DNA of 64,000 bases from an uncultured Acidobacteriota bacterium (GCA_963792515.1 CAWBWG010000007.1:48171-112170), one strand, 5' to 3'; shown: positions 19,008-35,138, counted from the stretch's first letter. The notes: a model not told the origin generated them from the letters alone. Program-made: numbers and translations.

Positions 19008-19008
19008 G

Positions 19009-19185
19009 TCACTTGAACCTTGAGAGAAACTGACGAACAACGTCGGGGTCGAACAATAAGCGACGGCAAATTCGAGTAGGTTTGAGCGCACCTTTTCGGA
19101 CCCAGGCTCTGACTGTATGGGGCGATACTCGAAGTCTGTCAGCGAGATCACGCAAGGTGAGCAGTTGGGGAACACCGTCAGACAT
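19009..19185 (-). CDS. HTH_17 / excisionase-AlpA-like DNA-binding protein (58 aa)
   Basis: My translation from the ATG at 19185: MSDGVPQLLTLRDLADRLRVSPHTVRAWVRKGALKPTRICRRLLFDPDVVRQFLSRFK; TGA stop codon at 19011-19009 on the minus strand. Confidence 0.7.
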   Translation of the reverse strand: MSDGVPQLLTLRDLADRLRVSPHTVRAWVRKGALKPTRICRRLLFDPDVVRQFLSRFK

Positions 19186-19188
19186 CGC

Positions 19189-19359
19189 TCAATCCTTTGT
19201 TTTCAGCCTGGCTTCGACCGCCTCAACAGGAATGCGCCAACGCTTTCCGACCTTGCGGCCCACCAGCTTTCCAGTCCAAAGCAGCGAGTACAAATAATCG
19301 AGCCCGACGCCGAGTCTGCGGGCCGCTTCGATTGCGCTCATTTCTGTTTGTTTTGTCAT
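19189..19359 (-). CDS. HTH_17 / excisionase-AlpA-like DNA-binding protein (56 aa)
   Basis: ATG at 19359 preceded by AAGGAGG: MTKQTEMSAIEAARRLGVGLDYLYSLLWTGKLVGRKVGKRWRIPVEAVEARLKTKD. Confidence 0.7.
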   Translation of the reverse strand: MTKQTEMSAIEAARRLGVGLDYLYSLLWTGKLVGRKVGKRWRIPVEAVEARLKTKD

Positions 19360-19584
19360 ATTCCTCCTTGACAGTCGCGATGCTACTCCTTACCCTAATG
19401 CTCGTGCAACGTGGCCATATCAAGACCGTAACAGAACTTGCCGTTCTGGTGCCCTGCGATGCGAAGGACAAAGACGGCTTAGCGACATTTCTGTCGGAGT
19501 TGGCCGGAACTCAGCCGGTCCGAGTTGTTACTCTGGGTGATCTCAAGTCCGATCCACGCAAAATTTAAGCAAGCGCTGAGTACG

Positions 19585-20193
19585 ATGTGGGACTACGAAC
19601 GGGTGCAGTTCGAAGCGGTGGTCGCCTTACTCAGCGCGTTGCGAAGAAAAGACAAGCTGGCAATCAGCCGCGCCCGAGGCTTCGTCACGAACGCACTCGC
19701 GCTCAAGCGAGAAGGGGACAGGAGACTCGGCATTAGCCCGGCGCTAGATGATGACCTAGATTTTGGGCGGGTTCTTATTCATGTTTTTGGCCTGGAGCCG
19801 GGACAGGAGAAGGAAGCCATTGAGCGGTGGAACGGTTACCGTCACGGTCCGAAAGCGGATGCAAACCATCGGTGGCTACTATCGCAGCTAATGTCTGAAG
19901 CGCTCGATTCTGTGCGTTTGGTGCTCTGGTCGTCGGGAAAGCATCTTCGACCTGCGCTCTACTGCCCTCAGGCCAAGGCCGCTCTTTACGCGATGCTCTT
20001 GATGAAGATCGCCGCTGGGCGGGGATGGGGAGTGTGTCCGTATTGCGGTCAGTTCTTTGCTCAAAAGCGTTCCGACCAGAATTACTGCACGATTGCACAT
20101 CGTGAGGCGCATCGAGTAGCACGGTGGCGTGCAGCGAGAGTATCGCAATCGAAACAGAGAGGCGGGTCATATGGCACTCGTAAAACGCGGTAG
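19585..20193 (+). CDS. hypothetical protein with a C-terminal CPYCG..C..AH zinc-ribbon-like motif
   Basis: ATG at 19585 within ORF 19525..20193. The C-terminus reads WGVCPYCGQFFAQKRSDQNYCTIAHREAHRVARW. It overlaps the integrase start by 23 nt. Confidence 0.5.
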   Translation: MWDYERVQFEAVVALLSALRRKDKLAISRARGFVTNALALKREGDRRLGISPALDDDLDFGRVLIHVFGLEPGQEKEAIERWNGYRHGPKADANHRWLLSQLMSEALDSVRLVLWSSGKHLRPALYCPQAKAALYAMLLMKIAAGRGWGVCPYCGQFFAQKRSDQNYCTIAHREAHRVARWRAARVSQSKQRGGSYGTRKTR

Positions 20194-21400
20194 GACGTGG
20201 CACACACAATTCTACGTTAACGGTGCTCGCTACCGACAGTCGCTTCGCACAACCGACTGGCGCGAAGCGCTTCAGCGCGAGAAAGAACTGATCTCGCAGG
20301 CGAGTGTCGGGAAGCTCGCGCCGTCGAGTCAGCAGTTCGCCCGACTCGCCTTTTCCGTGGCGGCGGATCGATACATCGAAGATCGTAAGGCCTATCTGGC
20401 GCCTCGAAGCGTGCGTACAGAACAAGAGCGCCTGAAGGGTCTGCGATTATTCTTTGGTGCGACGCCGTTAACCCGCATCAGTTCGGACTCGGTTCGAGAA
20501 TATGTCGCCAAGCGCAAGAACGCGGGACTGAGCAATCGCACGGTGAATATGGAGACTGGCTGCCTTGCTCGCGTTCTAAAGAGGGCGAAACGTTGGCATC
20601 TGATCGCAGAGGATATAAAGCCGCTGCCCGAGGGACGGAGCGTGGGTAGGGCATTGACGCATGAAGAGAAAGTGAAGCTACTAAAAGCTGCTGCTCGCAA
20701 ACCAGAGTGGATGCTTGCGCGGCTTGCTGCAATCTTGGCACTGAATACCACGATGCGAGGGTGCGAGATCCGCGGACTACGATGGTGCGACGTCGATTTC
20801 ATAGAACGGACACTCACCGTGCGCCGAAGTAAAACACAGGCGGGGGAGCGCGTGATTCCGCTCAACGGCGACGGGTGGGGAGCGATTCTCGAGTTACGGG
20901 AGAGAGCAAAACAGCTTCTCGGCGTCGAGCCGCGCTCCCAGTGGTTTGTATTTCCTCATGGGGAGGGGCAAGGGCCCGTTACCCACACGAAAACGAGACC
21001 TGGGCCAAAATCGGTAACTGTGAAACCCGACCCAACCAAGCCTATGATTTCGTGGCGGACGGCATGGCGAAAAATTGCCAAGGAAGCCGGACTCCCCGGG
21101 CTGCGGTTTCATGATCTCCGGCACCACGCCGTGACAGAGCTTGCCGAGGGGCAGGCCAGCGATCAAATAATACGGTCGATTGCGGGGCACGTTTCACTTC
21201 GAATGCTAGAGCATTATTCTCATATCAGGTTGGACGCCAAGCGCAAGGCGCTTGATGCTCTCTCAGGTGGACCACCGGACTCAGTTACGACACAACTCAC
21301 GACACAAATTTCGAATCGATCGCCGCAAGCGATTGAAAAGAATGGCGGGGCCGACGGGGTTCGAACCCGCGACCTCCTGCGTGACAGGCAGGCGTTCTAA
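20171..21400 (+). CDS. tyrosine recombinase / phage-type integrase
   Basis: The ATG at 20171 gives MALVKRGRTWHTQFYVNGARYRQSL (typical integrase N-terminus). Catalytic pattern: CEIRGLRWCDVDF (Arg), LRFHDLRHHAVT (HxxR), GHVSLRMLEHYSHI (Tyr). The last 58 nt of the ORF run into tRNA-Asp on the opposite strand. Confidence 0.9.
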   Translation: MALVKRGRTWHTQFYVNGARYRQSLRTTDWREALQREKELISQASVGKLAPSSQQFARLAFSVAADRYIEDRKAYLAPRSVRTEQERLKGLRLFFGATPLTRISSDSVREYVAKRKNAGLSNRTVNMETGCLARVLKRAKRWHLIAEDIKPLPEGRSVGRALTHEEKVKLLKAAARKPEWMLARLAAILALNTTMRGCEIRGLRWCDVDFIERTLTVRRSKTQAGERVIPLNGDGWGAILELRERAKQLLGVEPRSQWFVFPHGEGQGPVTHTKTRPGPKSVTVKPDPTKPMISWRTAWRKIAKEAGLPGLRFHDLRHHAVTELAEGQASDQIIRSIAGHVSLRMLEHYSHIRLDAKRKALDALSGGPPDSVTTQLTTQISNRSPQAIEKNGGADGVRTRDLLRDRQAF

Positions 21401-21420
21401 CCAAGCTGAACTACGGCCCC
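21343..21420 (-). tRNA. tRNA-Asp (anticodon GTC)
   Basis: The reverse complement folds as GGGGCCG TA GTTC AGCTTGGTTA GAAC G CCTGC CTGTCAC GCAGG AGGTC GCGGG TTCGAAC CCCGT CGGCCCC G CCA. Confidence 0.9.
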
Positions 21421-21452
21421 GTTGTACTTGTACGGCGTCACTTTTGCGGTGA

Positions 21453-21528
21453 TGGTGGGCGGTCAGCGATTTGAACGCTGGACCTTCCCGGTGTAAGCGG
21501 GATGCTCTAACCGCTGAGCTAACCGCCC
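21453..21528 (-). tRNA. tRNA-Val (anticodon TAC)
   Basis: The reverse complement folds as GGGCGGT TA GCTC AGCGGTTA GAGC A TCCCG CTTACAC CGGGA AGGTC CAGCG TTCAAAT CGCTG ACCGCCC A CCA. Confidence 0.9.
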
Positions 21529-21674
21529 TCGTGATGCGAACGCATTCTGCATGCAACGAATTTAGATTACAGGTTATTCGGCCGGTCCGCAACTGAGTCG
21601 CGTCTCCTTAAAGCCCGGAACGGACTGCGACAACACAGCGGAATGGCTGCGAATGTGCAGAGATTCTATCCATT

Positions 21675-23045
21675 GTGAAAGCCAGATCATATTTCGGGCT
21701 ATTGTCGCTCCTTGCGCTGCTAGCTTGGTCTCAAGCGCCGGCGCATTCCGTTTACATTTCCTGGAGCGAGGCGCAGCCGGCCCTCGCCGCTTATCAGGAT
21801 GCTTTGCCGGAGCGATTGCGAAGCGCCGCGCCGCTCGACGAATCGAAATGGGCGGCATGGGTTGCGGCCAGCGATCGCGAAGTGCGCGCGCGCCTCGATC
21901 GTGGGCAGGAAGATACTCTTAGCAATTTGCTGCGCTTTGGCGTCACCTTCACGCAGGAATACCGCATTGATGATGAATACTTGCCTAAATTTGGGCGCAG
22001 CACGCTGGTGGATTCCTTCGCCGGGCAACGCGCCGGCGATTTGGTCCGCGCGCTCGCTTCGCCGCACTCGGCGGAAGGATTCCGGGAAATGCGCGCATTT
22101 CTCGAGAAGCAGGGCTATTCGTTTGACACTCCGGCAGCGCGCCTAAAAGTAAAAAAGCATCTGCTCGAAAATCTGGCGCGGCTGCGCGACGATTTCGTGA
22201 ACGCTCATTCCGAGGCCGCCAAGGAAAATCGCTGGCAATCCTTCGAAGCGCGCGGGATTTCACTCGATACGAATCTGTGGCCCGACTATGACGTTGACGC
22301 CCATCTGCGCGCCCTGCTGCAAAACGGCTCGCTCAAGCCGGGCAGCGTGCGCCGGATTGCGATCGTCGGCCCGGGGCTTGATTTCGTAAACAAGCAGCAG
22401 GGCTATGATTTTTATCCGCCGCAGACCATCCAGCCCTTTGCGGTGCTCGATAGCCTGGTCCGTCTGAAACTTTCGGATCCTGCGTCGATCGAGATCTATA
22501 CGATGGATATCAGCTCGAGTGTGAACGTGCATATCGAGCGGGCGCTCAAAAATGCGGTCGACGGTAAATCGTACGTGCTGCAATTGCCGTGGTATCAGGC
22601 GGGCCGGTGGAGCGATGAATTCCGTGCAGCGTTCGTTTCCTATTGGCAAAATCTTGGATTGTCGATCGGCAAGCCCGTGCCGGCAATTCCGGTGCCGCAG
22701 GGCGCCGAGGGGATTGAATCTCGCGCCATAGCCGTTCCGCCCGCCATCGTTCGCCGCATTACGCCGTTGGATTTGAACATCGTCTATCAACGGATCGAGC
22801 TGGCTCCCGATCAACGCTTCGATTTGATCATCGGCACGAATGTGTTCGTCTACTATGGCGCGTTTGAGCAGTCGCTGGTGCGCGCGAATGTGGCGAGCAT
22901 GCTTAGACCCGGTGGATTTTTGCTTTCATCGGAGAAACTGGCGGATCGCATCGAGAATGGATTGGCGCCGGAGACGACCACCGAAATTCCTATGACTGGG
23001 CCGCCCGTGATGACGGACTACATTTTCGGCTATCGGCGAAAGTAA
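21675..23045 (+). CDS. secreted protein with a class I SAM-methyltransferase-like C-terminal half
   Basis: GTG start with signal-like MKARSYFGLLSLLALLAWSQAPAHS. Methyltransferase-like blocks RRIAIVGPGLDF, FDLIIGTNVFVYY and MLRPGGFLL. Confidence 0.55.
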   Translation: MKARSYFGLLSLLALLAWSQAPAHSVYISWSEAQPALAAYQDALPERLRSAAPLDESKWAAWVAASDREVRARLDRGQEDTLSNLLRFGVTFTQEYRIDDEYLPKFGRSTLVDSFAGQRAGDLVRALASPHSAEGFREMRAFLEKQGYSFDTPAARLKVKKHLLENLARLRDDFVNAHSEAAKENRWQSFEARGISLDTNLWPDYDVDAHLRALLQNGSLKPGSVRRIAIVGPGLDFVNKQQGYDFYPPQTIQPFAVLDSLVRLKLSDPASIEIYTMDISSSVNVHIERALKNAVDGKSYVLQLPWYQAGRWSDEFRAAFVSYWQNLGLSIGKPVPAIPVPQGAEGIESRAIAVPPAIVRRITPLDLNIVYQRIELAPDQRFDLIIGTNVFVYYGAFEQSLVRANVASMLRPGGFLLSSEKLADRIENGLAPETTTEIPMTGPPVMTDYIFGYRRK

Positions 23046-23069: not shown

Positions 23070-25067
23070 CTAAGCTAGATCGGATTCCCGGCGGCAGAAG
23101 CAACGAGGGCGCCGGACACCCGCAGCTATGCTGGACGGACAGTAAACTTCCGCCCCTACCGCGGGCGAGGCAACGGCTGCGTCCATGGTTGCGGCAAAGG
23201 TTGCGGCGTGGCGTGCTTTCCTGGTTACCGACGGAGTGCTCAGTGAATGTGCTTGTCCGTGGCAGGTCAGCGCGCAGGAATTCGTGGCCCGGCTATAGGA
23301 AACTGGACCGCCGTTTGGCGCGACTACGTTGACATCAAAGTTGACCAGCCGCTCGCCGGAAACAGTGGCGCTAGTCGCGCCCATTCCATGCGGAGTATGG
23401 CAAACCGAGCAGGAGAACCCATCGTTAATATGACGGGCGTGCTCGCTGAAGCTGGCGTTCGACACCACGTTGGCAAGACTGTGGCACTTGCCGCACAACG
23501 CGTACGGGCCGCTCACCGTGAGATCGGGATTCGGATTCAGATTGGTGATGAGTTGGCCTGGAGCCGTCGTCTCGCTGGCTATGTATTGCCGCTCCAGAAT
23601 GTGCGTCCACTTCGTTCCATGCGGGCCATTCGGTCCCGTGCCGCCGAATTCGCGATTGTCATCGCTGTTGTGGCAATCGGAGCAGAAAATTTGGACGCCC
23701 ATGCTGCGTCCCTGGGTCACGCCATCGAGATTCAGCATGTTGGCGAGCAAGCTGGGCTGCGGCAAAGCGCTATTGCTGACGTGCGTTACGGGATGACTCG
23801 AAGTGCTGCTGATGGCGAATTGCGGAATGACGTTGAGAATATCGCCCGAGGACACCAGCCGATTGGGCAAGTACCCGTAGATCGGATTGACAACTTTTCC
23901 CGCGCTCGTGCCATGGCAACGCAAGCAGTTGTCGTACTCGTTTACGGCGGGATACACGGTGCTCACGCCGTCTGCCGCGCTGACTCCGGCGATGCCATTC
24001 TGCGAGGGCCGAATGAGCGGCGGAGGCGTGAAACTCGTGACTTGATTGGCGGGATGGCCGTTGTGGCAATCGACGCAGGTGGCGTGACGATTGTTGTTGA
24101 GCACCACGCTTTCGGCGGCATCGTGCGTGTTCACGCCGGCGGGAAATGGGTGGCCGACCTTGGCGAATTCCGCGAACACATTGGGAATTCCGGGAGAAAT
24201 ATTCGATCCGCCGCTGTGACACGCGAGGCAGTCTTGCTCGTTCGGTGCGCGCAGCAATCGCGCGGGGCCCTGGCCGTTGTGAGGTTCATGGCAGGAGAGG
24301 CATGCGTTCTGCCCTACGTTCGAGTAGCTCCCCACTCCGGACTGCAGCGTGGTCTTATTCGCGGCGGTGGCGTGAATTCCCGTCGGCCAGCCAGCGAGAT
24401 GGTTGATCTGCCCGGTTAAAGCGCGCGTCGGATCATGACAGGCGAGGCACATCTGGCCACTCGAGCTATCGCGCACCAGAAAATTCTGAGAAATGGTGTC
24501 CTTGGCTTGCACGTGCGGGTCGTGGCAGGAAGTGCATTCGATATTTCCCTGCACCAGATGCACCGCTCCAGTGGGGTCCGCCGTTTTTCCCTGAGAAACC
24601 AGCGTCGCCGCTATTTCGACGGTATCTTTTAGCGGCAGCACCAGGCTGAACGGATGCGAGTTCTGCAGGTTCGTGCCGAACACATCGACGGCAGACATCG
24701 AACCCGTCATGGTCACGGCGCCGTACACGATGGTTTGTCCGGGTGCGACGGTTCCATCATGGCAGCTCAGGCAAAGGCTGCTATCTCCTCCGAGCGGAGG
24801 GATGGTGTTTCCGGTCTGATGATAGGTTGTGCTGGTGTAGGTCGTGTAGGTCTGCGTCGAGAAGGTTTGGTTCCAAAGCGGCGCCGGCGCGAATCCGGAA
24901 TGTGGTGCATGGCAATACGTGCAGGAACCGGGCCGCGCGCCGGTTACCGGCGACTTGCTGCCAGTGGTCAAATCGTGGACGCCGATTACATCGCCAGTCA
25001 CCTGCGCGCGCATCGCGGCTGGAGCCATCATCACCAGGGCGCACATCAGCAGGAACCGCGGCCTCAC
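23070..25067 (-). CDS. multiheme c-type cytochrome (11 CXXCH + 1 CX3CH), secreted
   Basis: Signal-like MRPRFLLMCALVMMAPAAMRAQ. Motifs counted by eye: CTYCH, CLSCH, CTSCH, CLACH, CLSCH, CLACH, CVDCH, CLRCH, CSDCH, CGKCH, CSVCH, CALTCH. The GTG start overlaps the upstream stop (GTGA at 25064-25067). Confidence 0.9.
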   Translation of the reverse strand: MRPRFLLMCALVMMAPAAMRAQVTGDVIGVHDLTTGSKSPVTGARPGSCTYCHAPHSGFAPAPLWNQTFSTQTYTTYTSTTYHQTGNTIPPLGGDSSLCLSCHDGTVAPGQTIVYGAVTMTGSMSAVDVFGTNLQNSHPFSLVLPLKDTVEIAATLVSQGKTADPTGAVHLVQGNIECTSCHDPHVQAKDTISQNFLVRDSSSGQMCLACHDPTRALTGQINHLAGWPTGIHATAANKTTLQSGVGSYSNVGQNACLSCHEPHNGQGPARLLRAPNEQDCLACHSGGSNISPGIPNVFAEFAKVGHPFPAGVNTHDAAESVVLNNNRHATCVDCHNGHPANQVTSFTPPPLIRPSQNGIAGVSAADGVSTVYPAVNEYDNCLRCHGTSAGKVVNPIYGYLPNRLVSSGDILNVIPQFAISSTSSHPVTHVSNSALPQPSLLANMLNLDGVTQGRSMGVQIFCSDCHNSDDNREFGGTGPNGPHGTKWTHILERQYIASETTAPGQLITNLNPNPDLTVSGPYALCGKCHSLANVVSNASFSEHARHINDGFSCSVCHTPHGMGATSATVSGERLVNFDVNVVAPNGGPVSYSRATNSCALTCHGQAHSLSTPSVTRKARHAATFAATMDAAVASPAVGAEVYCPSSIAAGVRRPRCFCRRESDLA

Positions 25068-26134
25068 TGATTTCCTCCCGCCGATTGTTTCGGCAAACCG
25101 TAATAGTGAAATACTTGCACGCGGCGGTTCAGGGAATCGACCACGAAAACGCGATCGTTGTGATCGATAAATAATCCGGACGGCAATTGGAATTGCGCGA
25201 CGGCTGTGCCGCGTTGCCCGAAGTAGTAAAGAAGCTGGCCTTTGCGGTTGAAAACCTGCACGGCGCCCCGAAGCCCGTCCACCACGTAGAGATCGCCCTC
25301 GGAATCAATGGCGATTCCCTTGGGACGGAACATCGCGGCGTTATCGTCTCCGATGTGGCCAATGGAGTATTGAAATGCTCCCGTGCGATCGAGCACCTGC
25401 ACGCGGAAATTCATCGCATCGACCACAAATAAGTCGCCGCCATCCAGCCGAAGCTCGGTGGGGAAGTTGAACTCCAGTTCGCCGGATCCTTCTTTGCCAA
25501 TGGTCTGCAGCACATTGCCGGCTAGATCCATTACGAAGATTTTGTCGCGCAATGTGTCGGTGACATAAATGCGGTTGGCTGCCGAGTCCACGGCGATTCC
25601 GGTGGGGCGCTTGAAGAAGCCTTCGCCGTATTTCAAGCTTCCGATCACCCGGCTGAATTTGCCGCTGGGCTCAAATACAAAAACTTTCCCGCCTTCCGAA
25701 TCGGTGACGTAGATGTTGTCCTGAGCATCGACGGCCACGCATTGCGGCGCGAGCAGATGGTCTTTGCCTTTATCGCGGCGGGAAATGAATTTGTATTTCT
25801 GCTGGGCGAAATCGAAGATGTGGATCCCGTAGGCGCCCGGGTCGGTCACAATCACGCGCCCGTGCGAATCCGCGACGATGCCGTAGGGGCGAATCAACGA
25901 ATGAAATTCCGGCTCGCCCGCCACCACATCCAGCACTTTGTTCCAGAAGCCGCGCTTGGGCTTGACGTCGCGCTCCCAAGTGAAATTTCGTTCGTAGCTC
26001 AGCTTGCGCCCGCCCTCGAGCAGCAAATCGGGAACCGGTTGGTCTTCCGGCTTTTTCTTGTCCTTCCGCGAGCCCCAGGCAGGAATCAGCAGCAAAAGGG
26101 CAAACACGGTCGCGGTCACCGCGCGTAGTTTCAA
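25064..26134 (-). CDS. NHL-repeat six-bladed beta-propeller protein
   Basis: Repeated blocks PYGIVADSHGRVIVTD, PQCVAVDAQDNIYVTD, PTGIAVDSAANRIYVTD, FPTELRLDGGDLFVVD, PKGIAIDSEGDLYVVD, PSGLFIDHNDRVFVVD. A TTG start at 26134 (MKLRAVTATVFALLLLIPAWG) is preferred, because the track ORF extension to 26764 overlaps the barrel gene. The start is uncertain. Confidence 0.8.
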   Translation of the reverse strand: MKLRAVTATVFALLLLIPAWGSRKDKKKPEDQPVPDLLLEGGRKLSYERNFTWERDVKPKRGFWNKVLDVVAGEPEFHSLIRPYGIVADSHGRVIVTDPGAYGIHIFDFAQQKYKFISRRDKGKDHLLAPQCVAVDAQDNIYVTDSEGGKVFVFEPSGKFSRVIGSLKYGEGFFKRPTGIAVDSAANRIYVTDTLRDKIFVMDLAGNVLQTIGKEGSGELEFNFPTELRLDGGDLFVVDAMNFRVQVLDRTGAFQYSIGHIGDDNAAMFRPKGIAIDSEGDLYVVDGLRGAVQVFNRKGQLLYYFGQRGTAVAQFQLPSGLFIDHNDRVFVVDSLNRRVQVFHYYGLPKQSAGGNQ

Positions 26135-26148
26135 TCGCGATGCGCGGA

Positions 26149-27990
26149 TCAGAAAAATTTGAACCACCGTGAAACTCCGAAGTAATAAGTAGAAACGTTG
26201 GCAGCGGGAAGCGGCGAGGCGCTGAAGCTTTGCTCCAGCCGGGCATAGCCACCCGTCAGGTACACTTTGCGGAACTGATATTGGGTGTAAACGGTGAGCT
26301 GCAAGTTCTTGTTCGAGGATGCCTGCGTGTCTCCGCCTGTATCGCTGGTGGACTTCGAGAAGCTCGCGCCGATCGTAAGTCTTCGCACCGGCGAAGCCCC
26401 CAGCCCGAAAGAATAACTCCTGCCGCCGTACAGAATGATGAGGCTCGAAGGTATAACCGGCGTAGGCACCGGCGTGACGACCAGCCCGGCTCCGGTCTGC
26501 ACTGCATTGCCATTGGCGGCGGCGTAGCTTCCCGTTAGGCTGGCCCAGCGTCCGAAGGTGAATCCGGTGGAATAGCTCTGACTGCGGCTTTCGGTTCCTG
26601 CTTGCTGCGTCAATGCAGTGCGTGATCCGGACGCGCTGGCGCTCCAATACACCGAACCGAAACGGCGTCTTACATTGCCAGAATAGTTGTAGTAACCGGT
26701 CGTGTAGGTCACCAGCAACGTCTGCGCGTTCTGCGCGTAGCTGAACGACGCGCCAAAAAACCATTTATGGATGCGCCGCGAGAAGTTAACCGTGCCGATC
26801 AGCCCGATGGTATTGACGTCCATGTTGTCGAGCCGCGTGTCATTCACGGTTCCGGACACGTTGAACGAACCACCCAGCAACGGCCGCGTGTAGAGAATAC
26901 TGCCGCCCGCGGAAGTTGCGCCCACGCTTTCGCCGAGGAAGGATTGATCGCGGCGCTCGACATCGCCGAGCAATTGCAGGTTCGGCAAAATCGCGTAACT
27001 GGCCACGCCCAACGCATCGAAGGAATCGGATTTCTCGTTACCGTTAGGAGGCAGTGGAACGCCCCCGCTCGAGGAAGCCGCTTCGAACAGCGTTCCGCCC
27101 AGATTATCCGAGTAATTCAGCCCCACTGACAGATGCAGCTTGTTGCTGGGCTGGATTCCGGCGTTTGCGGTGATGGAATCAACGGTGCCATTGAAGCTGA
27201 AGCCCTGATCGTCGGTGCTAAAAGACGAGCGCGTGAAAGTGGCGGAAAACCCACCGCGCATTGGCAGAGCGTGCGAAATATTGAATCCGAATCCATCCGT
27301 GCCCGTATCCGAGTTTACCGATTGATCGGTAGCAGTGAACAATTGCGGGATCACCGAATTGGACGTTCCATACTGAAAGAACGCGCCCATGGCGTATCCG
27401 TGCGTCAAATATCCCGAATGAATATTGATGGAATCAAAAGTCGTGCTTCCCGTGTCATTCGCGCCGTAAACTGAATAATCCGTGCTTCCTCTTTGAAATC
27501 CAAAAGTGAGGCTGGGCATATCCGGAACGTTTTCCGACCAATTGACGCCGAATGAATCGCTGTTTCCGTGCGTCGTGTAACTGGGCAGCCCCGGCAGCGC
27601 GAAATTCCCTTCGCTGTTATACGACCTCGAATAATTGACGGAACCCGGATAATTGCTGCCATTGAAAATTCCCGCGGCGAAATTCACACCACTGGCGTCG
27701 GAGATGGATTGATAATTGGAATCGGCGCGCGACTGATTCAGGTACGGCGTCACAGTGAACGATAGAAAATTGGGATCGTAAAAGTATCCTGCGAGAGTCG
27801 CCGTCCCGCCGAAATTCAAGCTGTGCTCCGAGGCCGTCTGATTCCCGTAGTCCGCGGAATATCCTCCCGAAACTACCCCGGTCAGGTTCATATTGACGTC
27901 GCCGGCTTGCACCTGCGCGGCCGCCGGGCGAGCCCAGAAAAGCAGCAGCCCCGCGGCTAGGCAATACGCGACTCGAGAAATCCGAAGCAA
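26149..27990 (-). CDS. outer-membrane beta-barrel-like protein (porin-like partner of the cytochromes)
   Basis: 613 aa. Signal peptide MLRISRVAYCLAAGLLLFWARPAAAQ. The sequence is Gly/Ser/Thr/Tyr/Asn-rich with alternating patterns, and ends ..YYFGVSRWFKFF (aromatic terminal residue). Confidence 0.7.
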   Translation of the reverse strand: MLRISRVAYCLAAGLLLFWARPAAAQVQAGDVNMNLTGVVSGGYSADYGNQTASEHSLNFGGTATLAGYFYDPNFLSFTVTPYLNQSRADSNYQSISDASGVNFAAGIFNGSNYPGSVNYSRSYNSEGNFALPGLPSYTTHGNSDSFGVNWSENVPDMPSLTFGFQRGSTDYSVYGANDTGSTTFDSINIHSGYLTHGYAMGAFFQYGTSNSVIPQLFTATDQSVNSDTGTDGFGFNISHALPMRGGFSATFTRSSFSTDDQGFSFNGTVDSITANAGIQPSNKLHLSVGLNYSDNLGGTLFEAASSSGGVPLPPNGNEKSDSFDALGVASYAILPNLQLLGDVERRDQSFLGESVGATSAGGSILYTRPLLGGSFNVSGTVNDTRLDNMDVNTIGLIGTVNFSRRIHKWFFGASFSYAQNAQTLLVTYTTGYYNYSGNVRRRFGSVYWSASASGSRTALTQQAGTESRSQSYSTGFTFGRWASLTGSYAAANGNAVQTGAGLVVTPVPTPVIPSSLIILYGGRSYSFGLGASPVRRLTIGASFSKSTSDTGGDTQASSNKNLQLTVYTQYQFRKVYLTGGYARLEQSFSASPLPAANVSTYYFGVSRWFKFF

Positions 27991-28005: not shown

Positions 28006-29001
28006 TTACAGCACTTCGACCTTGGCCTTGCGCCGCAGGGCCTGATCCAGCGCGGCACGGAGCTGGTTGGTCTTCTTGCTTTCCAGCTCCTTGCGCAACT
28101 CGTTTTTTACGTCGGCAAATTTCGCCTTGCCCGCCGTTACGTGCTGGTTCAGCCGCACGATGGTGAAGGCTTGCTCGATTTGAATGATGCTGGTGATCTG
28201 CCCTGGCTGCATGGAGAGTAAGGCATGCACTACGGCGGGATCGAGCTTGGCACGCTCGACGAGCTTGTGGTCGCCCATCATTACCCGGTAGTCATCGTCC
28301 GATATTTTTTCGGCGAGCATTCCGAATTCTTCGTAGCTTTTGGTGGCCTTGGCCTGCCGCAACGCCTCTTCGGCGCGCCGGCGCCCTTCTTTCAATTGGT
28401 CGGCAGTCTGGTTCTTGGGCGGCAGAACCGAGATGGTCTGAAACGCGAAGGATTCCGGGTGCTCGAATCGCGCGGGGTTTTTGTCGTAGTAGGATCGCAG
28501 TTCCGCGTCCGACACGGTCGATTTCTGTTGCACCTCAATTTTCAGCAAGTCATCGATCAACAGGGAGCGGCGCACCCGCTGACGCACCAGTTCTTCCGAG
28601 TCGTGGAATTCCGTGTGGACGAATTCTTGATACAGAGCTGGACTGGCGAACTGGGCCCGGAAGTCCGCTTCGGCCTTTTGCAATTTCGAGGCGGGCACTG
28701 TCATTCCGCGGCGCAAAGCTTCCTGATATACCAGCTCCTCGAAAATAATCATTTTCATGGCGCCGTCGCGGATGCTTTCTTCCATTTCTTTGGGGAACCC
28801 GCCATTGTGCTGGCGCGCGTAGGGAAAGATCGCGAACATCTCGCGCAACAGGTCGCCATCGGTGAGAACGGTGCCGTTTACCCGAGCCACGGGCCGGCCC
28901 GTCGCGTGTATCTGCACGCTCTGCGACGGTGCTGAGTCTTGAGCAGACGCTGTCCCGAGCGCCGCTAGCACGAGCACGCCGACACCCAATTGAAAGTTCA
29001 T
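28006..29001 (-). CDS. periplasmic peptidyl-prolyl cis-trans isomerase (PpiC/parvulin, SurA/PrsA-like)
   Basis: Signal MNFQLGVGVLVLAALGTASAQ. SurA-N-like ARVNGTVLTDGDLLREM, and a rotamase-like block FEHPESFAFQTISVL..EFGMLAEKISDD..GDHKLVERAKLDPAV. Confidence 0.75.
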   Translation of the reverse strand: MNFQLGVGVLVLAALGTASAQDSAPSQSVQIHATGRPVARVNGTVLTDGDLLREMFAIFPYARQHNGGFPKEMEESIRDGAMKMIIFEELVYQEALRRGMTVPASKLQKAEADFRAQFASPALYQEFVHTEFHDSEELVRQRVRRSLLIDDLLKIEVQQKSTVSDAELRSYYDKNPARFEHPESFAFQTISVLPPKNQTADQLKEGRRRAEEALRQAKATKSYEEFGMLAEKISDDDYRVMMGDHKLVERAKLDPAVVHALLSMQPGQITSIIQIEQAFTIVRLNQHVTAGKAKFADVKNELRKELESKKTNQLRAALDQALRRKAKVEVL

Positions 29002-29067
29002 AGCGTTTTCAGGCTACTGACTGAGAAAACAAGAGGAGAGATTTCGCTCTCCCCTCGTAGGTTGAAG

Positions 29068-29946
29068 TTAGAAAGTGGTCCCCGCCGTACCGTTGTTCGA
29101 CTCGTTCGCTTCGCCGCCATGGCACTGACGGCAAAATTGCGCGTTCTGGTTCGAACCAGCGGTGGTTGAGGCCGGGTTATAAGGCGCCAGGATGAAAAAC
29201 ATCGTCTGGTAATAACCCGACGGCAGTCCAGTCTTCGGTCCGTTGGTGACCTTCACCACGTTCATCAGGTGCTGGTTGTGGCAGGTCGTGCAGACGACGA
29301 CTGGCGAAGTGTTGTTGTAGTTCCCAGGTGCGACAAAAAAGCCATAGTTCGTGATGAACTTGGCGAAATTGGTGCCCGAGGGAACGTTAATCGCTCCGGC
29401 GGTAATGGTGCAATCCCAGTTGTACTGTCCGCCGCAACCAATGATGGCGTTCAGTCCGACTGGATGGTCGTTGAGGTACCCCAGACTATCGGCGCCCAGT
29501 AACGTAGGAATTTCGTTAAAGGTACCGTAAGTGGATGGGAGCGTCTCATAGACCTGGTTCTTCATCATCGCGCCCGTGGCATAGTTGCCGTCATGGCAAC
29601 TGAGACAGGTCAACAGCCCCAAGACATCGGGGGTGGTGGCCGTTAGGCTGGCCGGCAGAGTCTCGACGTAAAACGTGCCGGCTCGTGACTGGCCAGTGTT
29701 GATGACCTTGTTGTACAGATTGCCGACATCCTGGCCCCAGAGCGCAACCGCTCCGGCATTTGGGTCGCCGGATTTGTTGGCTCCGTTGCCCGATGCGCCG
29801 CTATGCGGAGCATGGCAAGCCGTGCAACCACGGCCATAGTTAAGGTGGGCGCCGAGGACGTCCGTCGACGGCGAAAAGCCGGACTGGGCTGCAGCAATTC
29901 CTGCACTGCCCAGCACGACGATTAGGGTTAACAATACTTTCTTCAT
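29068..29946 (-). CDS. tetraheme c-type cytochrome (292 aa), secreted
   Basis: ATG at 29946 preceded by GGGAGG. Signal MKKVLLTLIVVLGSAGIAAAQ. Motifs CTACH, CLSCH, CTTCH, CRQCH. The N-terminal module GCTACHAPHSG..ALWGQ resembles SCTYCHAPHSG..PLWNQ of the 665-aa cytochrome. Confidence 0.85.
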   Translation of the reverse strand: MKKVLLTLIVVLGSAGIAAAQSGFSPSTDVLGAHLNYGRGCTACHAPHSGASGNGANKSGDPNAGAVALWGQDVGNLYNKVINTGQSRAGTFYVETLPASLTATTPDVLGLLTCLSCHDGNYATGAMMKNQVYETLPSTYGTFNEIPTLLGADSLGYLNDHPVGLNAIIGCGGQYNWDCTITAGAINVPSGTNFAKFITNYGFFVAPGNYNNTSPVVVCTTCHNQHLMNVVKVTNGPKTGLPSGYYQTMFFILAPYNPASTTAGSNQNAQFCRQCHGGEANESNNGTAGTTF

Positions 29947-30083
29947 GAACAAACCTCCCAATCGTGCTGCAGCACTTCCATTGCTACTGAAACTGCTGCT
30001 ACGAAAGCCGGACAAGTAGGCCTGCTCTTGTTCGTCTCTCTTCTTGGTTGTCACCCGACCAACCAAAAACTCTTGCCCGCCGG

Positions 30084-31358
30084 TTACTGCGCGGTGGAAC
30101 TCTGTGCCTTGGCGGACGGGTCAGCCTTCGGCGACGCCGAATCGGCCGGCTTTGGCGCGGCCTGTTGCGGCGACGCTTCGCGGCGCGCTTTCTCCGCCGC
30201 GGCTTCCGCATCCGTCACGTACTGAAACATCTGCATCCGGCCCGGATATTGTTCGCTGGTGAAGACGTGGTTCTGTTTGTCGATGGCGATGCCCACCAGC
30301 GCTCCGAATTGTCCGGGAAAATTTCCGTGCCCGCCGATCCAGGTGAGCAACTGCCCCTCACGGTTGAAGACCTGCACGCGATCCTGATACGCGTCCGCGA
30401 TCCAGATGTGCCCGTCGGAATCGATGGCGATTCCTTTCGGCCGCGCCAGGTATCCCGGTCCATCGCCGTGCTGTCCGAACATGCCGATGAACTTCCCGTC
30501 GGCATCGAACATTTCCACGCGGTTGTTCATCGTGTCGGTCACATACACATTGCGGTCTTTGTCCAACGCCACATTCGATGGCGCGCCAAAATCTCCCGGC
30601 GTGGTGAGCCAATGGTTTTTGCCCGCGGTGCCGATTTTGCGCACCAGCTTCAAAGTGTCTGCGTCGAACACGATCACCTGGTCTTGCTGCGTATCCACTA
30701 CGTACAGATAGCGGTTCTCCGTGTCGATCGCCAGGCCCACGGGATCCACGAGTCCTTCGTCGATCTTGTTGATCACTTGATGCTTTCCATCAAACACCAG
30801 CACGCGGTGCAGCTTGCCATCCGAGACGAACAGGCGATCGTCATCGTCAATTGCCAGTCCGTTGACCAACCCGAAATGCGCTTCATAGCCGTTGCGGATC
30901 AGTTGCACGTCGCGCGTATCGGTATTAAATATGAAAACGGCTCCCACTTTCTGATCGGCGACGTACACCAGACCCTTGGAATCGATGGCAATCCCGTAGG
31001 GCGAGATCATTTGGAACGGAAACGTCTTCACATCGAATTTCTCGGTCTGTGGCTGCTCGCCTGCTAAACGGTCCATCCAACTCTGCTTTTTCTTCTTAGG
31101 TGCGGGACTCGTGTCGATCTTTTCGCCCGCGAAGTAATTCAGGTAACGCACGCGCGCGATCGATGGAGGGCTGGGCCACACCAGCATCGATAAATCGATC
31201 TGCACTTTCGGCTTGGCCGCCTGGTCGGCCGCCGTATCGGCCTTCTTCTTCTTTTGGTTATCGGCAAAATTGGCGAACGGTAAAGCCAGTACTACCGCCA
31301 GCAGCCCCGCGATGGCTGCTCCGTTTCGGCACGCCGCTCGTATCGCAATCCTTTTCAT
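30084..31358 (-). CDS. NHL-repeat beta-propeller protein with a Lys/Pro/Ala-rich C-terminal tail
   Basis: Anchor or signal AIAGLLAVVLALPFANFA. Blades PYGIAIDSKGLVYVAD, VNGLAIDDDDRLFVSD, PVGLAIDTENRYLYVVD, PSNVALDKDRNVYVTD, PKGIAIDSDGHIWIAD, LVGIAIDKQNHVF. Confidence 0.85.
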   Translation of the reverse strand: MKRIAIRAACRNGAAIAGLLAVVLALPFANFADNQKKKKADTAADQAAKPKVQIDLSMLVWPSPPSIARVRYLNYFAGEKIDTSPAPKKKKQSWMDRLAGEQPQTEKFDVKTFPFQMISPYGIAIDSKGLVYVADQKVGAVFIFNTDTRDVQLIRNGYEAHFGLVNGLAIDDDDRLFVSDGKLHRVLVFDGKHQVINKIDEGLVDPVGLAIDTENRYLYVVDTQQDQVIVFDADTLKLVRKIGTAGKNHWLTTPGDFGAPSNVALDKDRNVYVTDTMNNRVEMFDADGKFIGMFGQHGDGPGYLARPKGIAIDSDGHIWIADAYQDRVQVFNREGQLLTWIGGHGNFPGQFGALVGIAIDKQNHVFTSEQYPGRMQMFQYVTDAEAAAEKARREASPQQAAPKPADSASPKADPSAKAQSSTAQ

Positions 31359-31372
31359 TGCTTCACTCCAAA

Positions 31373-32812
31373 TTATCGGCTCATGTCGATCCGGTTTCTG
31401 TGACAGCCGTCACAGAAGGCCATATTGTTTTCCTGGTCTTTCACCAGTAGTCCGGCGTGCGCCGAGGAGTGCGGCTGGTGGCAGCTCATGCAACTCAGCG
31501 AGAAACGCACTTTGGTGATGTCTTTCGGATCGGGCACATCCGAAACCGGATGCCCGTCGACGGGATGGCCAAATCCGAATCGCAGCGGCAGGATCGGTAC
31601 GCGGTTCTTCTTGTAATAGTCATCCGGAAGCTTCACGGCCCCGTTGAAAATGGTCAGCACGTGCTCCGCTTCCAGCTTCTGGGGCACCGAATCGGGGCCA
31701 TGGCACTCGAGGCAGAGCGCATCGCCTTGCGCGCGCAGTAGATGTTCGCTGTCGTTGCCGTGAGGGTCGTGACAGGTCGCGCAGCCCTGCTGGTATGCCG
31801 GCTGATGCAACACGCGCTTTTTGCCCTCGTCGGCTTGCGTGATATGGCAGCCCAGACACACGTTCACGGCATCCGGCTTCGGAAAGCCGGGCGACGCTCC
31901 GGCATGCGGGTTGTGGCAGTCCGTGCAATCCCCCTGCGCCCCGGGATGCTGCACTTTTGCCGTTTCGATCTGCTTGGCTTTGTCCGCGTGGCACGTGACG
32001 CACAGTTCCTTGGCCGACGCCTGCGTCAACACCACTTTCCCGTCTTTAGCCGGCTGGTGGCAAAGCTCGCATTGCTTTTCCGCGAACGGCGGGTGAACGA
32101 ATGCCTGCATCAGCTTGGGCCGCTCGGACTCATGTGGGCTATGGCAGGCCAGGCAATCAGCGCTCTCGAACGGCTGATTCTGATGGGCCTTAGCCAGATT
32201 GGCGTCTTTCACGTCATGGCAATCGACGCACAGCGCTGGAACCGTTTTGGTGAGATGAAATTTAAATTCGAGGTTGAGAGGGTCGCCCGTTTTGTGCGTG
32301 ACGTGGCAGGTATCGCAGCCCAGATCGAGTGCGGCATGGCGGCTGCCGGCCGCGGAAGGGTGGGCGCCCGTGGCGTGGCAATCGAGGCAGAGGTTTTCTT
32401 TGGCGCCGCCCGACATGGGCTTCAGCAGTTGAAACTTGTTGTCGGAGGAATGCGGATCATGGCATTTCAGGCAGTCGCGGACTGCTGGCGGATGCACCGC
32501 CCCTTTAATTTGCGTTGCATCCTTATCAACATGGCAGGTCAGACAGAGCCCGTAAACGGTGGTGGTGATCAATTTCACGCGCGTTACGTCGCGATTGACG
32601 CGCACCTCGTGGCACGAAGTGCATCCTAGCGCCATGGCGGAATGTACGGATTTGCCCTTGGTCTGATCAACATGGCATTCCAGGCATTTTGCTGACGGCG
32701 TGTTCTTCTCGAGCGGAACGGGATGAACATCGGCGCGTGCCGTCGCGGCGCCGCAGAGCGCGAGGAAGGCATACAACAACGCTCTCAGTCCGCCGGATGC
32801 ACACTGGCGCAC
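31373..32812 (-). CDS. 16-heme c-type cytochrome (c7/c3-type repeats), periplasmic or secreted
   Basis: I counted 16 CXXCH motifs, from CLECH through to CDGCH. A GTG at 32812 gives MRQCASGGLRALLYAFLALCGAATARA (signal-like). The track ORF extension to 33034 has no signal and looks non-coding. Confidence 0.85.
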   Translation of the reverse strand: MRQCASGGLRALLYAFLALCGAATARADVHPVPLEKNTPSAKCLECHVDQTKGKSVHSAMALGCTSCHEVRVNRDVTRVKLITTTVYGLCLTCHVDKDATQIKGAVHPPAVRDCLKCHDPHSSDNKFQLLKPMSGGAKENLCLDCHATGAHPSAAGSRHAALDLGCDTCHVTHKTGDPLNLEFKFHLTKTVPALCVDCHDVKDANLAKAHQNQPFESADCLACHSPHESERPKLMQAFVHPPFAEKQCELCHQPAKDGKVVLTQASAKELCVTCHADKAKQIETAKVQHPGAQGDCTDCHNPHAGASPGFPKPDAVNVCLGCHITQADEGKKRVLHQPAYQQGCATCHDPHGNDSEHLLRAQGDALCLECHGPDSVPQKLEAEHVLTIFNGAVKLPDDYYKKNRVPILPLRFGFGHPVDGHPVSDVPDPKDITKVRFSLSCMSCHQPHSSAHAGLLVKDQENNMAFCDGCHRNRIDMSR

Positions 32813-33090
32813 TGGCGCACCCGCATTGGTGCTATAGCAGAGCCTCGCTCGTCGCACATTGCTCCTGCTGTGAATAGGACGCACGTCCCGCGGAGGGAGA
32901 AATGCTGCCCTAGCGTACTGCGCCGGGGGGATCGTTGCAAGAGCCGTGCCATTTGTGGGTTTCGCCCCGAGGGCTGCTGGCCCACGAACTCCCCTGAAAC
33001 GCTCGCCAGGTTGAAAGTTGCGGAAAGAGGTCAAAGAGGCTCACAGTACCGCAATGGAATTCGGCAACCATGGAATTCCCGAAACGGAAA

Positions 33091-33266: not shown

Positions 33267-33405
33267 AAATCCCACGAAATTCTGTATCAGGCCTGTTAAC
33301 GCAACGCCTTGCTGGCGCGTCTAGCTGCTAGTACGCGAGCATCCCATGCCGGCAAGCCTAGGAAGCCGAGTTGACATTCGCGCGGGAATCGTGGGATTAC
33401 CGGGT

Positions 33406-33984
33406 ATGAGCGATTCGCACGCGCGCGCAGCCGAGCCGCCATCGGACGACGCGATGCTGGTGGAAGCGGCGCGCCGCGGCGATCGCAGCGCCTATGGCCG
33501 TCTCTACGATCGCTATGCGCACATGGTTCACGGGATTCTGCTCGCGCGCGTGCCGCCCAACGAAGTCGACGACCTGACTCAGGATGTGTTTCTGAAAGCC
33601 ATGCCGCGTCTCGGCTCGTTGCGCGAGGCGGCGCGCTTCGGTGCCTGGCTGGCGGCGATCGCTCGCAATCGCGCCAATGATTTCTTCCGGCGGGCGAAGC
33701 CGACTGCGGATTTGAGCGAATCGCTGGTAGTCGAAAAAATCGAAGACCGCGCCGCTAGCAGCGCCCAAATTGCGGAGGCGTCAGCGATTCTGGAAGCCAT
33801 CCGCACGCTGCCCGACGCGTATCGCGAGACGCTAATTTTGCGGCTGGTCGAAGGCATGACCGGCCCCGAAATTGCCGCGCGCACCGGCCTGGCGCCCGGC
33901 TCGGTGCGCGTGAATCTGCATCGCGGGATGCAGCAATTGCGCGAGAAACTCGGTGTCCGTTCGTCACATGCCGCGGCTCTCTAG
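33406..33984 (+). CDS. ECF-type RNA polymerase sigma-70 family factor
   Basis: From the ATG at 33406: ..LVEAARRGDRSAYGRLYDRYAHMVHGILLARVPPNEVDDLTQDVFLKAM (region 2) and ..YRETLILRLVEGMTGPEIAARTGLAPGSVRVNLHRGMQQLR (region 4). Confidence 0.85.
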   Translation: MSDSHARAAEPPSDDAMLVEAARRGDRSAYGRLYDRYAHMVHGILLARVPPNEVDDLTQDVFLKAMPRLGSLREAARFGAWLAAIARNRANDFFRRAKPTADLSESLVVEKIEDRAASSAQIAEASAILEAIRTLPDAYRETLILRLVEGMTGPEIAARTGLAPGSVRVNLHRGMQQLREKLGVRSSHAAAL

Positions 33985-34064
33985 ATGCTTTGCCCGGCAA
34001 TCCCGGACGAAATGAAAAAGCCGTGCGATGCCTGAGTAGGGAATTGGTGCCAGAAGGACAACTT

Positions 34065-35138
34065 ATGAATGATGATTATCTCTGGGATGGCTCAGGTGAG
34101 TCGGATCCCGAAATCCAAAAACTCGAGAGCACGCTGGGACGCTTCCGTCACAATCTTTCAGCGCCGGATTTTCACAATCTGAACGCAGCGACGCAGTCTT
34201 CTCCGCTGCGCCGGCGATTCCGTTTCAGTTTCGCAGTTGCGTCCGCATGTCTCGCAACGGCCGCAGCACTCACGGTAGCGGCTGTGCAGTACGAGAATTA
34301 TTTGCACCGGATCTCGTTGAGCGAGCCCGCCTGGCGCGTCGCAACGCAAGCCGGAATGCCACGGATTGGTTCAAACGGAATCGGCATCGATGGAAAAGCG
34401 GCATCCTTGCGCATTGGAGAAACTCTCGAGACCGATAGCAACTCGCGCGCGTCAATCGTAGACGGTGCGACAGGAGACATCCAGGTCGATCCAGACACGC
34501 GCGTACGCGCCGTCGAATCGCGCTCTGGCACCAAGCGGCTCGCTCTCGACCGCGGCACGATTCACGCGCAAATCTGGGCCCCCGCAGGCCGCTTCGTCGT
34601 CGACACGCCCTCAGCCGTCGCCGTTGATCTCGGCTGCGTCTACACTCTCCACGTAGACGATTCCGGCGCGGGCCTGCTGCAAACTTCCTTCGGCTGGGTC
34701 GGCTTCAAACTCGACGGGCACGAGTCGTTCATTCCGACGGGCGCGGCCTGCGCCACGCATCCGAACTCAGGCCCCGGCACACCGTATTTCGAAGATTCAT
34801 CGCAGAAATTCCGAGAAGCGCTAACTCAATTCGATTCCAGCAGCCCCGCACCAGCCGAACGAGAAGCCGCGCTAAGTGTTGTCCTCGCGGCAGCCCGCAA
34901 ACGCGACGCATTCACCCTATGGCATTTGCTCTCGCGCGTGGACGAATCCGATCGAACTCGCGTCTACGACCGGCTAGCATCTCTCGTTCCTCCTCCGCGC
35001 GAAGTCACCGGCGATGGCATCCTGCGCCTCGATCGCCCCATGCTCGATCGCTGGTGGGACCAGTTGGGTCTCGGCGACATAAAACTCTGGCGCAATTGGG
35101 AGCGCAATTGGCCGGAGGCGTCTCGCGCAGCCAAATAA
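34065..35138 (+). CDS. anti-sigma factor, FecR-like, single-pass membrane protein
   Basis: ATG at 34065 (MNDDYLWDGSGESDPEIQKLE). TM segment FSFAVASACLATAAALTVAAV. FecR-like block LRIGETLETDSNSRASIVDGATGDIQVDPDTRV..GTIHAQIWAPAGRFVVDTPSAVAVDLGCVY. Confidence 0.7.
   Translation: MNDDYLWDGSGESDPEIQKLESTLGRFRHNLSAPDFHNLNAATQSSPLRRRFRFSFAVASACLATAAALTVAAVQYENYLHRISLSEPAWRVATQAGMPRIGSNGIGIDGKAASLRIGETLETDSNSRASIVDGATGDIQVDPDTRVRAVESRSGTKRLALDRGTIHAQIWAPAGRFVVDTPSAVAVDLGCVYTLHVDDSGAGLLQTSFGWVGFKLDGHESFIPTGAACATHPNSGPGTPYFEDSSQKFREALTQFDSSSPAPAEREAALSVVLAAARKRDAFTLWHLLSRVDESDRTRVYDRLASLVPPPREVTGDGILRLDRPMLDRWWDQLGLGDIKLWRNWERNWPEASRAAK

Follow-up and report, generated by a model that had tools for sequence, protein, structure and literature searches.

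A divergent OmcE-like tetrahaem cytochrome of soil and peat Acidobacteriota as a candidate nanowire subunit

The tetrahaem protein and its cytochrome cluster

The stretch of DNA analyzed here, called the window throughout, is 64,000 nucleotides of an uncultured Acidobacteriota bacterium (GCA_963792515.1 CAWBWG010000007.1:48171-112170), and the subject of this work is a gene in it for a small tetrahaem cytochrome (hereafter the tetrahaem) that is read from 29946 to 29068 on the minus strand. It is one of seven cytochrome-cluster genes, all on the minus strand, that code in this order for a 16-haem cytochrome, a first NHL-repeat propeller (NHL1), the tetrahaem, a peptidyl-prolyl isomerase (PPIase), a putative barrel, a second propeller (NHL2) and a 12-haem cytochrome (Table 1). 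An earlier reading made from the sequence alone (the sequence-only reading) had described a secreted protein of 292 residues with four CXXCH motifs in a Gly/Asn/Thr-rich sequence, and the translation and the composition of the mature protein agree with this description. It had also put the protein forward as compatible with a nanowire subunit, and this candidacy is supported by the homology to OmcE, by the omcE-like gene cluster and by the layout of promoter gap and terminator described below.

The translated protein begins with a Sec signal peptide (MKKVLLTLIVVLGSAGIAAA, followed by Q) without a lipobox and has exactly four CXXCH motifs, CTACH at 41-45 (C41/C44/H45), CLSCH at 114-118 (C114/C117/H118), CTTCH at 219-223 (C219/C222/H223) and CRQCH at 272-276 (C272/C275/H276). 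The distal His are H34, H48, H161 and H226. The four CXXCH motifs were invariant in 112 and in 32 diverse members of the family, and across the 32 members H34, H161, H226, D119, G120, P162, F197, Y201, F271 and E282 were invariant as well. Since H48 is conserved to at least 90% in the widest set, the four haems are matched by exactly four extra His. The mature protein contains 12.9% G, 10.7% T and 10.3% N, and K, R, D and E together make up only 8.1% of it. It has 68 residues per haem, 49% G/T/N/S/A and 8% charged residues (K+R+D+E), and the corresponding values are 68, 49% and 14% for OmcS and 49-52, 48-53% and 10-14% for the two solved chains of OmcE. The codon bias of the gene, expressed as the effective number of codons, was not distinctive. 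The last 16 residues form a tail that is conserved family-wide (...NE..G....T.F, with an aromatic last residue) and to which nothing in OmcE corresponds; this tail may be the signal by which the SurA-like chaperone or the barrel recognises the protein. A Cys171-Cys179 pair conserved in the subfamily is a further difference from OmcE.

Table 1. Positions of the cytochrome-cluster genes and associated features, counted from the first nucleotide of the window
Feature	Position	Strand	Remarks
Tetrahaem cytochrome	29068..29946	-	292 aa
C-terminal tail of the tetrahaem	29068..29115	-	16 residues
Intergenic region upstream of the tetrahaem	29947..30083	-	137 nt
Ribosome-binding site GGGAGG	29954..29959		7 nt 5' of the tetrahaem ATG
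Perfect palindrome GTGCTGCAGCAC	29964..29975		12 bp, just upstream of the ribosome-binding site
Hairpin TTTTTGGTTG...CAACCAAGAA	~30040..30075	-	directly after the NHL1 stop
Intrinsic-terminator-like hairpin GAGGGGAGAGCGAAATCTCTCCTC with T-rich tail	29023..29056	-	11 nt after the tetrahaem stop
16-haem cytochrome, MtrA/DmsE type	31373..33034	-	ORF (open reading frame) of 553 aa; L001 relative 502 aa
First NHL-repeat beta-propeller (NHL1)	30084..31358	-	424 aa
SurA/PpiC-type periplasmic peptidyl-prolyl isomerase/chaperone	28006..29001	-	331 aa, signal peptide
Secreted protein, probable barrel	26149..27990	-	613 aa, Gly/Ser/Asn/Tyr-rich, C-terminus ...SRWFKFF
Second NHL-repeat beta-propeller (NHL2)	25064..26140	-	~358 aa, uncertain start codon
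12-haem cytochrome	23070..25067	-	11 CXXCH and one CX3CH
OmcE-like domain of the 12-haem cytochrome	~24432..25067	-	residues 1-~212
Cluster flank	18009..23045		
Secreted protein without Pfam match	21675..23045		456 aa
Phage-type integrase	20129..21400		
AAA_25 protein	18009..19175		
ECF sigma factor and FecR-like anti-sigma factor	33346..35138	+	divergent from the cytochrome operon

Homology to OmcE

When the tetrahaem and the 12-haem protein of the same operon were compared as single sequences the relation was weak (BLASTP E=3e-4). At the family level residues 2-127 of the tetrahaem aligned with residues 3-112 of the 12-haem protein (hhalign probability 99.2%, E=5.7e-20, 38% identity), and thus the paralogy of the first haem modules suggested by the sequence-only reading holds for the families and spans two modules and not one. 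The 12-haem protein is a fusion in which a complete OmcE-like tetrahaem domain is followed by a part with eight more haems and the MtrC/MtrF-type domain described below, and the signature D[VA][IL]G.H...C.YCH.PH...LWN is found at its mature N-terminus in at least 53 of 74 loci. The family profile of the 12-haem protein matched chain A of PDB 7TFS, the subunit of the OmcE filament from G. sulfurreducens (GSU0618), over the whole chain (HMMER E=1e-18, 7-231 against residues 7-210), and it also matched chain N of 9YUQ with E=1.3e-14. The latter, a chain of 218 residues of which there are 16 copies, shares 44% identity with OmcE, and 9YUQ is presumably the OmcE bundle of D. soudanensis. Pairwise, the 12-haem protein of the window and OmcE are 28% identical (BLASTP E=3e-17).

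The tetrahaem family itself was compared to OmcE by hhalign, with the OmcE side made up of the two sequences read from the 7TFS and 9YUQ alignments. The match had E=4.3e-13 over 105 columns, and with a more diverse alignment of the family it had E=7.5e-15 over 116 columns. It covers residues 35-173 of the tetrahaem, and the identity of about 25% holds for the N-terminal two-thirds only. The score was 91.7 compared to 25.9±4.9 (maximum 41.7) in 100 column shuffles that preserved the CXXCH motifs (z≈13), and unrelated multihaem regions of the same operon, used as a control, scored 32-55 over 21-82 columns. Some of these unrelated control regions are called 82-93% 'probable' by hhalign, and the argument rests on the scores and the controls and not on the probability. 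A homology to OmcS was examined in the same way and rejected: the hhalign match had 47% probability and a score of 37.8 against 27.0±4.1 for the shuffles, 3 of 120 of which were as high, and its register was unstable, shifting with the settings.

A joint alignment of the tetrahaem of the window, three diverse members of its family, the N-domain of the 12-haem protein and both solved OmcE chains locates the haem ligands. Around haems 1 and 2, H34, C41, C44, H45, P47, H48, L69, W70, C114, S116, C117, H118, D119 and G120 were invariant, and in the rest of the chain H161, P162, C219, C222, H223, H226, F250, C272, C275 and H276. The His that 7TFS and 9YUQ conserve outside the motifs are aligned with H34, H48, H161 and H226. 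KHDL, CVFCHTPH, PLWN, CMSCHDG, NDHPV, CGSCHKVH and CLGCH of OmcE correspond to GAHL, CTACHAPH, ALWG, CLSCHDG, NDHPV, CTTCHNQH and CRQCH of the tetrahaem, so that the N-terminal His arm and the CHxPH, LW, C.SCHDG, NDHP[VI] and CxxCHxxH signatures are shared. Because these columns are invariant, the four haem sites and the four distal His of the solved OmcE are, at the level of the alignment, kept in the same order in the tetrahaem, and the eight axial-ligand positions correspond one-to-one. Four CxxCH motifs and four other His are also what OmcE homologues have been reported to conserve (bioRxiv 10.1101/2025.10.22.684050). Both proteins have a Sec signal peptide, are mostly coil and are low in charge. 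The tetrahaem exceeds OmcE in length by about 65 residues and differs from it by a Gly/Asn loop that follows haem 1, by insertions around haems 3-4 and by its conserved 16-residue tail, whereas the OmcE chain stops one residue after the last haem motif. Taken together, the tetrahaem very probably belongs to the OmcE superfamily.

The absence of a lipobox behind the Sec signal would also fit an abundant soluble tetrahaem shuttle of the periplasm, functionally like PpcA, STC or cytochrome c3 and with no role in a nanowire, and so would the Pfam matches, which are to generic cytochromes only; the high-expression architecture described below is seen for abundant periplasmic shuttles too. In Pfam only generic haem-motif matches were found, with no matched stretch passing alone, and the matches in NCBIfam fell well short of the family cut-offs. 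A confident match to a soluble tetrahaem family was the outcome that the sequence-only reading had set against its own proposal, and when c3, c7, STC, NapB, NrfB and c554 were considered, none of them was matched in Pfam, in NCBIfam, in the PDB sequences or with Foldseek. Per haem, the tetrahaem has 2-3 times more residues than these shuttles, very few of its residues are charged, and its homology is specifically to OmcE. We therefore regard a purely periplasmic shuttle as improbable.

Gene cluster, distribution and expression layout

The minimal omcE cluster has been described as two multihaem cytochromes, two beta-propellers and a large beta-barrel (bioRxiv 10.1101/2025.10.22.684050), and the cluster of the window, compared by description of gene content, has the same composition. 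It differs by the addition of a SurA-like PPIase and of a 12-haem protein with an OmcE-like N-domain, and these two features, a PPIase dedicated to the cluster and an OmcE-fusion cytochrome within the operon, are what is new at the level of the cluster. The block of tetrahaem, PPIase, barrel, NHL2 and 12-haem genes was complete in 75 of 81 related loci and all seven genes were present in 52 of the 81; the position of the 16-haem/NHL1 pair varies, being upstream or downstream of the block. The SurA-like PPIase is syntenic in 81 of 82 loci. Comparing the conservation of the seven proteins was uninformative because the loci had been chosen by similarity to the tetrahaem. The seven-gene cluster is likewise found in a long-form subfamily of 45% identity. 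On a Terriglobales contig (L083:3347-6279) the long-form cluster adjoins ResB/CcsB cytochrome c maturation genes, an arrangement reminiscent of Desulfuromonadia, whose omcE clusters have been reported to have a resB/ccsB neighbourhood. A second full-length paralogue of the tetrahaem is found in 26 of the 81 loci (for example L011:16877-17746 and L030:6631-7494). This copy usually follows the 12-haem gene on the opposite strand, and it keeps all four CXXCH motifs, the four distal His, the Cys pair and the C-terminal tail. Adjacent duplicated subunit genes are likewise known from omcS/omcT.

The family is large, with 5235, 3321 and 2785 clusters at 90% identity in separate searches and 437 representative clusters in a 50%-identity library, and at least 569 matching stretches were confirmed in species-representative genomes. 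The best 80 of these at least 569 matches came almost all from Acidobacteriota metagenome-assembled genomes of soil, bog and peat, among them Acidobacteriaceae, Terracidiphilus, Korobacteraceae, Sulfotelmatobacter and Acidiferrum. In every source the proteins are annotated as 'hypothetical' or with a generic cytochrome name. OmcE homologues have been reported in Thermodesulfobacteriota, Pseudomonadota, Aquificota, Campylobacterota and Nitrospirota, a list in which Acidobacteriota do not appear (bioRxiv 10.1101/2025.10.22.684050), and the host phylum is thus outside the five reported phyla. The tetrahaem is a new, divergent and very widespread OmcE variant in a phylum not previously linked to OmcE.

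The tetrahaem gene is set apart from its neighbours on both sides. Upstream, NHL1 ends at 30084 and the tetrahaem ATG is at 29946, and the other gaps in the operon are 14, 66 and 15 nt or overlaps, so the gap of 137 nt is the largest in the operon. The GGGAGG ribosome-binding site is strong, and both features are as first read from the sequence. This region probably carries a promoter of its own for the tetrahaem: in 29 of the 81 related loci the 16-haem/NHL1 pair does not precede the tetrahaem, and there an own promoter is needed because the gene heads the block. A sigma-70 promoter scan of the 137-nt gap found no site. Downstream, a strong GC-rich hairpin (ΔG ≤ -16 kcal/mol) was present 10-20 nt past the tetrahaem stop in 82 of 82 genomes. 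By a strict definition a terminator had to have a perfect stem of 7 bp or more, with 5 or more G-C pairs, and 4 or more T among the 9 nt that follow. Such a terminator was found after the tetrahaem gene in 78 of the 82, at a conserved position and with a stem of varying sequence, and after the other six genes in 1 of 56, 7 of 49, 5 of 81, 1 of 78, 0 of 75 and 0 of 73 cases. By analogy with pilin operons, a unit of promoter gap, strong ribosome-binding site and terminator placed ahead of the assembly genes suggests the layout of a major structural subunit.

Several other elements were seen in the upstream region. A sigma-54-like motif, CGGCAYG-N4-CGTGCA, occurs in 16 of 77 related loci (for example L047, L054, L061-L063, L067) at a fixed position of -106 to -116 from the tetrahaem ATG, and it was not found in the window's own 137-nt gap. 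The window has a perfect palindrome just upstream of the ribosome-binding site (Table 1), and a GTG...CAC palindrome (GTGTTGCAACAC or GTGCGCAC) lies at -23 to -34 in 18 of the 77 loci; the palindrome may be an operator or a hairpin of the 5' untranslated region. The hairpin directly after the NHL1 stop occurs in the closest relatives (L003-L005) as well and may end the upstream 16-haem/NHL transcription unit. Outside the cluster, a gene pair for an extracytoplasmic function (ECF) sigma factor and a FecR-like anti-sigma factor is divergent from the operon; it is missing from the otherwise syntenic locus L001 and is therefore not a conserved regulator of the cytochrome cluster. On the other flank lie a phage-type integrase, an AAA_25 protein and a secreted protein of 456 residues which adjoins the cluster in L001 and L002 too. 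When the tetrahaem and the barrel were searched against plasmids by tblastn no match was found.

The neighbouring genes bear on whether a filament is needed at all. In a PDB sequence search the 16-haem protein, whose true start is probably internal to its ORF, matched chain A of 6R2Q with E=4e-18, a chain that we take to be MtrA of the Mtr complex and that the PDB copy labels otherwise, and it is a probable periplasm-to-surface wire. The 12-haem protein has an MtrC/MtrF-type domain (PF22113, Pfam E=1e-12). The 613-residue protein is probably, judging from its Gly/Ser/Asn/Tyr-rich sequence and its ...RWFKFF end, a large outer-membrane beta-barrel that would act as conduit sheath and/or as secretion or anchor pore; it had no relative in Pfam, NCBIfam or the PDB even by profile search. 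The cluster is thus like MtrCAB (PDB 6R2Q) in having an MtrA/DmsE-like 16-haem protein, an MtrC/MtrF domain in the 12-haem protein and a large beta-barrel encoded between them. It is unlike Mtr systems in that these have no OmcE-like tetrahaem, NHL propellers or dedicated PPIase, and its barrel shows no detectable similarity to MtrB. With an MtrA-like protein, an MtrC/MtrF domain and a porin-sized barrel, a complete conduit exists without a filament. The serious alternative to a nanowire is therefore that the tetrahaem is a non-polymerising cytochrome of the OmcE family and works as a monomeric or small-oligomeric carrier, at the surface or in the periplasm, that feeds or extends this MtrAB-like conduit of 16-haem protein, barrel and 12-haem protein. 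It would be in keeping with this that OmcE-like tetrahaems that stand outside nanowire clusters and do not form filaments are said in the literature to be widespread, and that the C-terminal third and the tail of the tetrahaem differ from OmcE exactly at what would be the subunit interface. The cluster, however, has the propellers and the barrel that have been used in the literature to select nanowire-competent OmcE homologues, all eight OmcE ligand positions are kept, the His of CHxPH included, and the terminator-bounded unit with its strong ribosome-binding site suggests a large stoichiometric excess of a protein which, with 68 residues per haem and 8% charged residues, is unlike soluble shuttles. 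For these reasons we consider a non-polymerising carrier rather unlikely, and yet it is the alternative to be taken most seriously.

The fusion protein raises another question, namely whether the 12-haem protein is the one that polymerises and the tetrahaem has the minor role of a cap, an initiator or a terminator. HMMER ties OmcE to the N-domain of the 12-haem protein and not to the tetrahaem, and OmcE-like proteins have been proposed as 'stoppers' (bioRxiv 10.1101/2025.10.22.684050). What speaks against such a polymer is that a 450-residue extension follows haem 4, where the OmcE chain ends, and should block the next subunit. The 12-haem gene is moreover the last of the operon behind the terminator, while the strong ribosome-binding site and the own terminator belong to the tetrahaem, and it is the tetrahaem and not the 12-haem gene that is duplicated in the loci with a second copy. 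A 12-haem polymer is thus very improbable.

A proposed assembly and its implications

The reading that we favour, with some reserve, is that the tetrahaem is a divergent member of the OmcE family that would polymerise as the subunit of a nanowire, as far as can be judged from sequence comparison and gene context. Several results weigh against it. HMMER searches of the PDB with the tetrahaem sequence or its profile found no cytochrome filament, and with a hidden Markov model (HMM) of the 12-haem N-domain the tetrahaems scored no better than the unrelated 16-haem protein; it is because this HMM fails to separate the two that the profile-profile scores with their controls were preferred over HMMER. 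The C-terminal third with haems 3-4 was not significant alone against OmcE and is similar at the level of motifs only, and its insertions and 16-residue tail are absent from OmcE. Unlike the propellers of Desulfuromonadia, those of the window have no lipobox or lipoprotein signal, and the OmcE-like tetrahaems outside nanowire clusters mentioned above also count here. Finally, structural modelling did not lead to OmcE. An AlphaFold2 model from 79 close homologues was unusable, with a predicted local distance difference test (pLDDT) score of 46, and with 112 more diverse sequences the model had pLDDT 77 and a predicted template modelling score (pTM) of 0.74; helix made up 21% of it, strand 15% and coil 64%. 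When this model was searched by Foldseek against the PDB, 7TFS included, there was no match (best E=3.3, TM<0.13). The Foldseek result weighs little because the stretches of low confidence, residues 30-70 and 120-165, lie within the OmcE-like part and because proteins of this class are known from the literature to give no Foldseek matches.

If the tetrahaem does form filaments, their assembly could proceed as follows. The tetrahaem, with its Sec signal peptide and its eight ligand positions, would be exported through Sec and would receive four bis-His haems, and the co-encoded SurA-like chaperone would keep it assembly-competent. By analogy with the model for the omcE/omcS clusters, it would then reach the surface through or at the 613-residue barrel with the help of the two NHL propellers. 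There it would polymerise head-to-tail, and in the insulated haem wire so formed one distal His of each subunit would complete a haem of its neighbour. The best candidate for this His is His48 of CHxPH, by analogy with His16 of OmcS, and His34 of the N-terminal arm would be the alternative. OmcS (PDB 6EF8) has six haems and no significant sequence relation to the tetrahaem, and yet it is like it in the number of residues per haem and in amino-acid bias as well as in the His-x6-CxxCH-x-x-His spacing, OmcS residues 2-16 corresponding to residues 34-48 of the tetrahaem. Given the region upstream of the gene and the terminator after it, the tetrahaem would be made in far greater amounts than the assembly proteins. 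Electrons would pass from the 16-haem MtrA-like cytochrome inside the barrel to the 12-haem protein and from there to the filament. The N-side of the 12-haem protein would dock on the C-side of a tetrahaem subunit, as base at the conduit or as tip at the mineral, and since its own C-side continues into eight more haems it could sit at one end of the filament only.

Tetrahaem subunits are also what OmcE-type and archaeal nanowires are made of, as the sequence-only reading had stated in agreement with the literature. The archaeal filaments of P. calidifontis and A. veneficus share with the tetrahaem the functional idea of a polymer of tetrahaem subunits, and they differ from it in that PDB searches gave no sequence match and Foldseek no match of fold. 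To our knowledge the only solved cytochrome nanowires are those of Geobacter, Desulfuromonas and two archaea. The initiation, termination and tip of these filaments have been posed as open questions, with no candidate in the known omcE operons (bioRxiv 10.1101/2025.10.22.684050). The 12-haem protein, encoded in the operon in nearly all loci, is a candidate for the base or the tip of a filament, and the operon thereby offers a concrete candidate for how OmcE-type filaments start, end or connect to the cell. We put forward, as a tentative scheme only, that Terriglobia assemble OmcE-type nanowires with the 12-haem protein as the end piece, its N-domain in the filament and its MtrC-like extension as base or tip, and with the SurA-like chaperone and the ...T.F tail acting in a chaperone/pore assembly route.

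Terriglobia are among the commonest bacteria of soils and peat, and the common Acidobacteria of these habitats may also build cytochrome nanowires. If the tetrahaems polymerise, long-range extracellular electron transfer to iron oxides and humics would be common in a dominant soil phylum, and this would have a bearing on the cycling of carbon and iron in peat.

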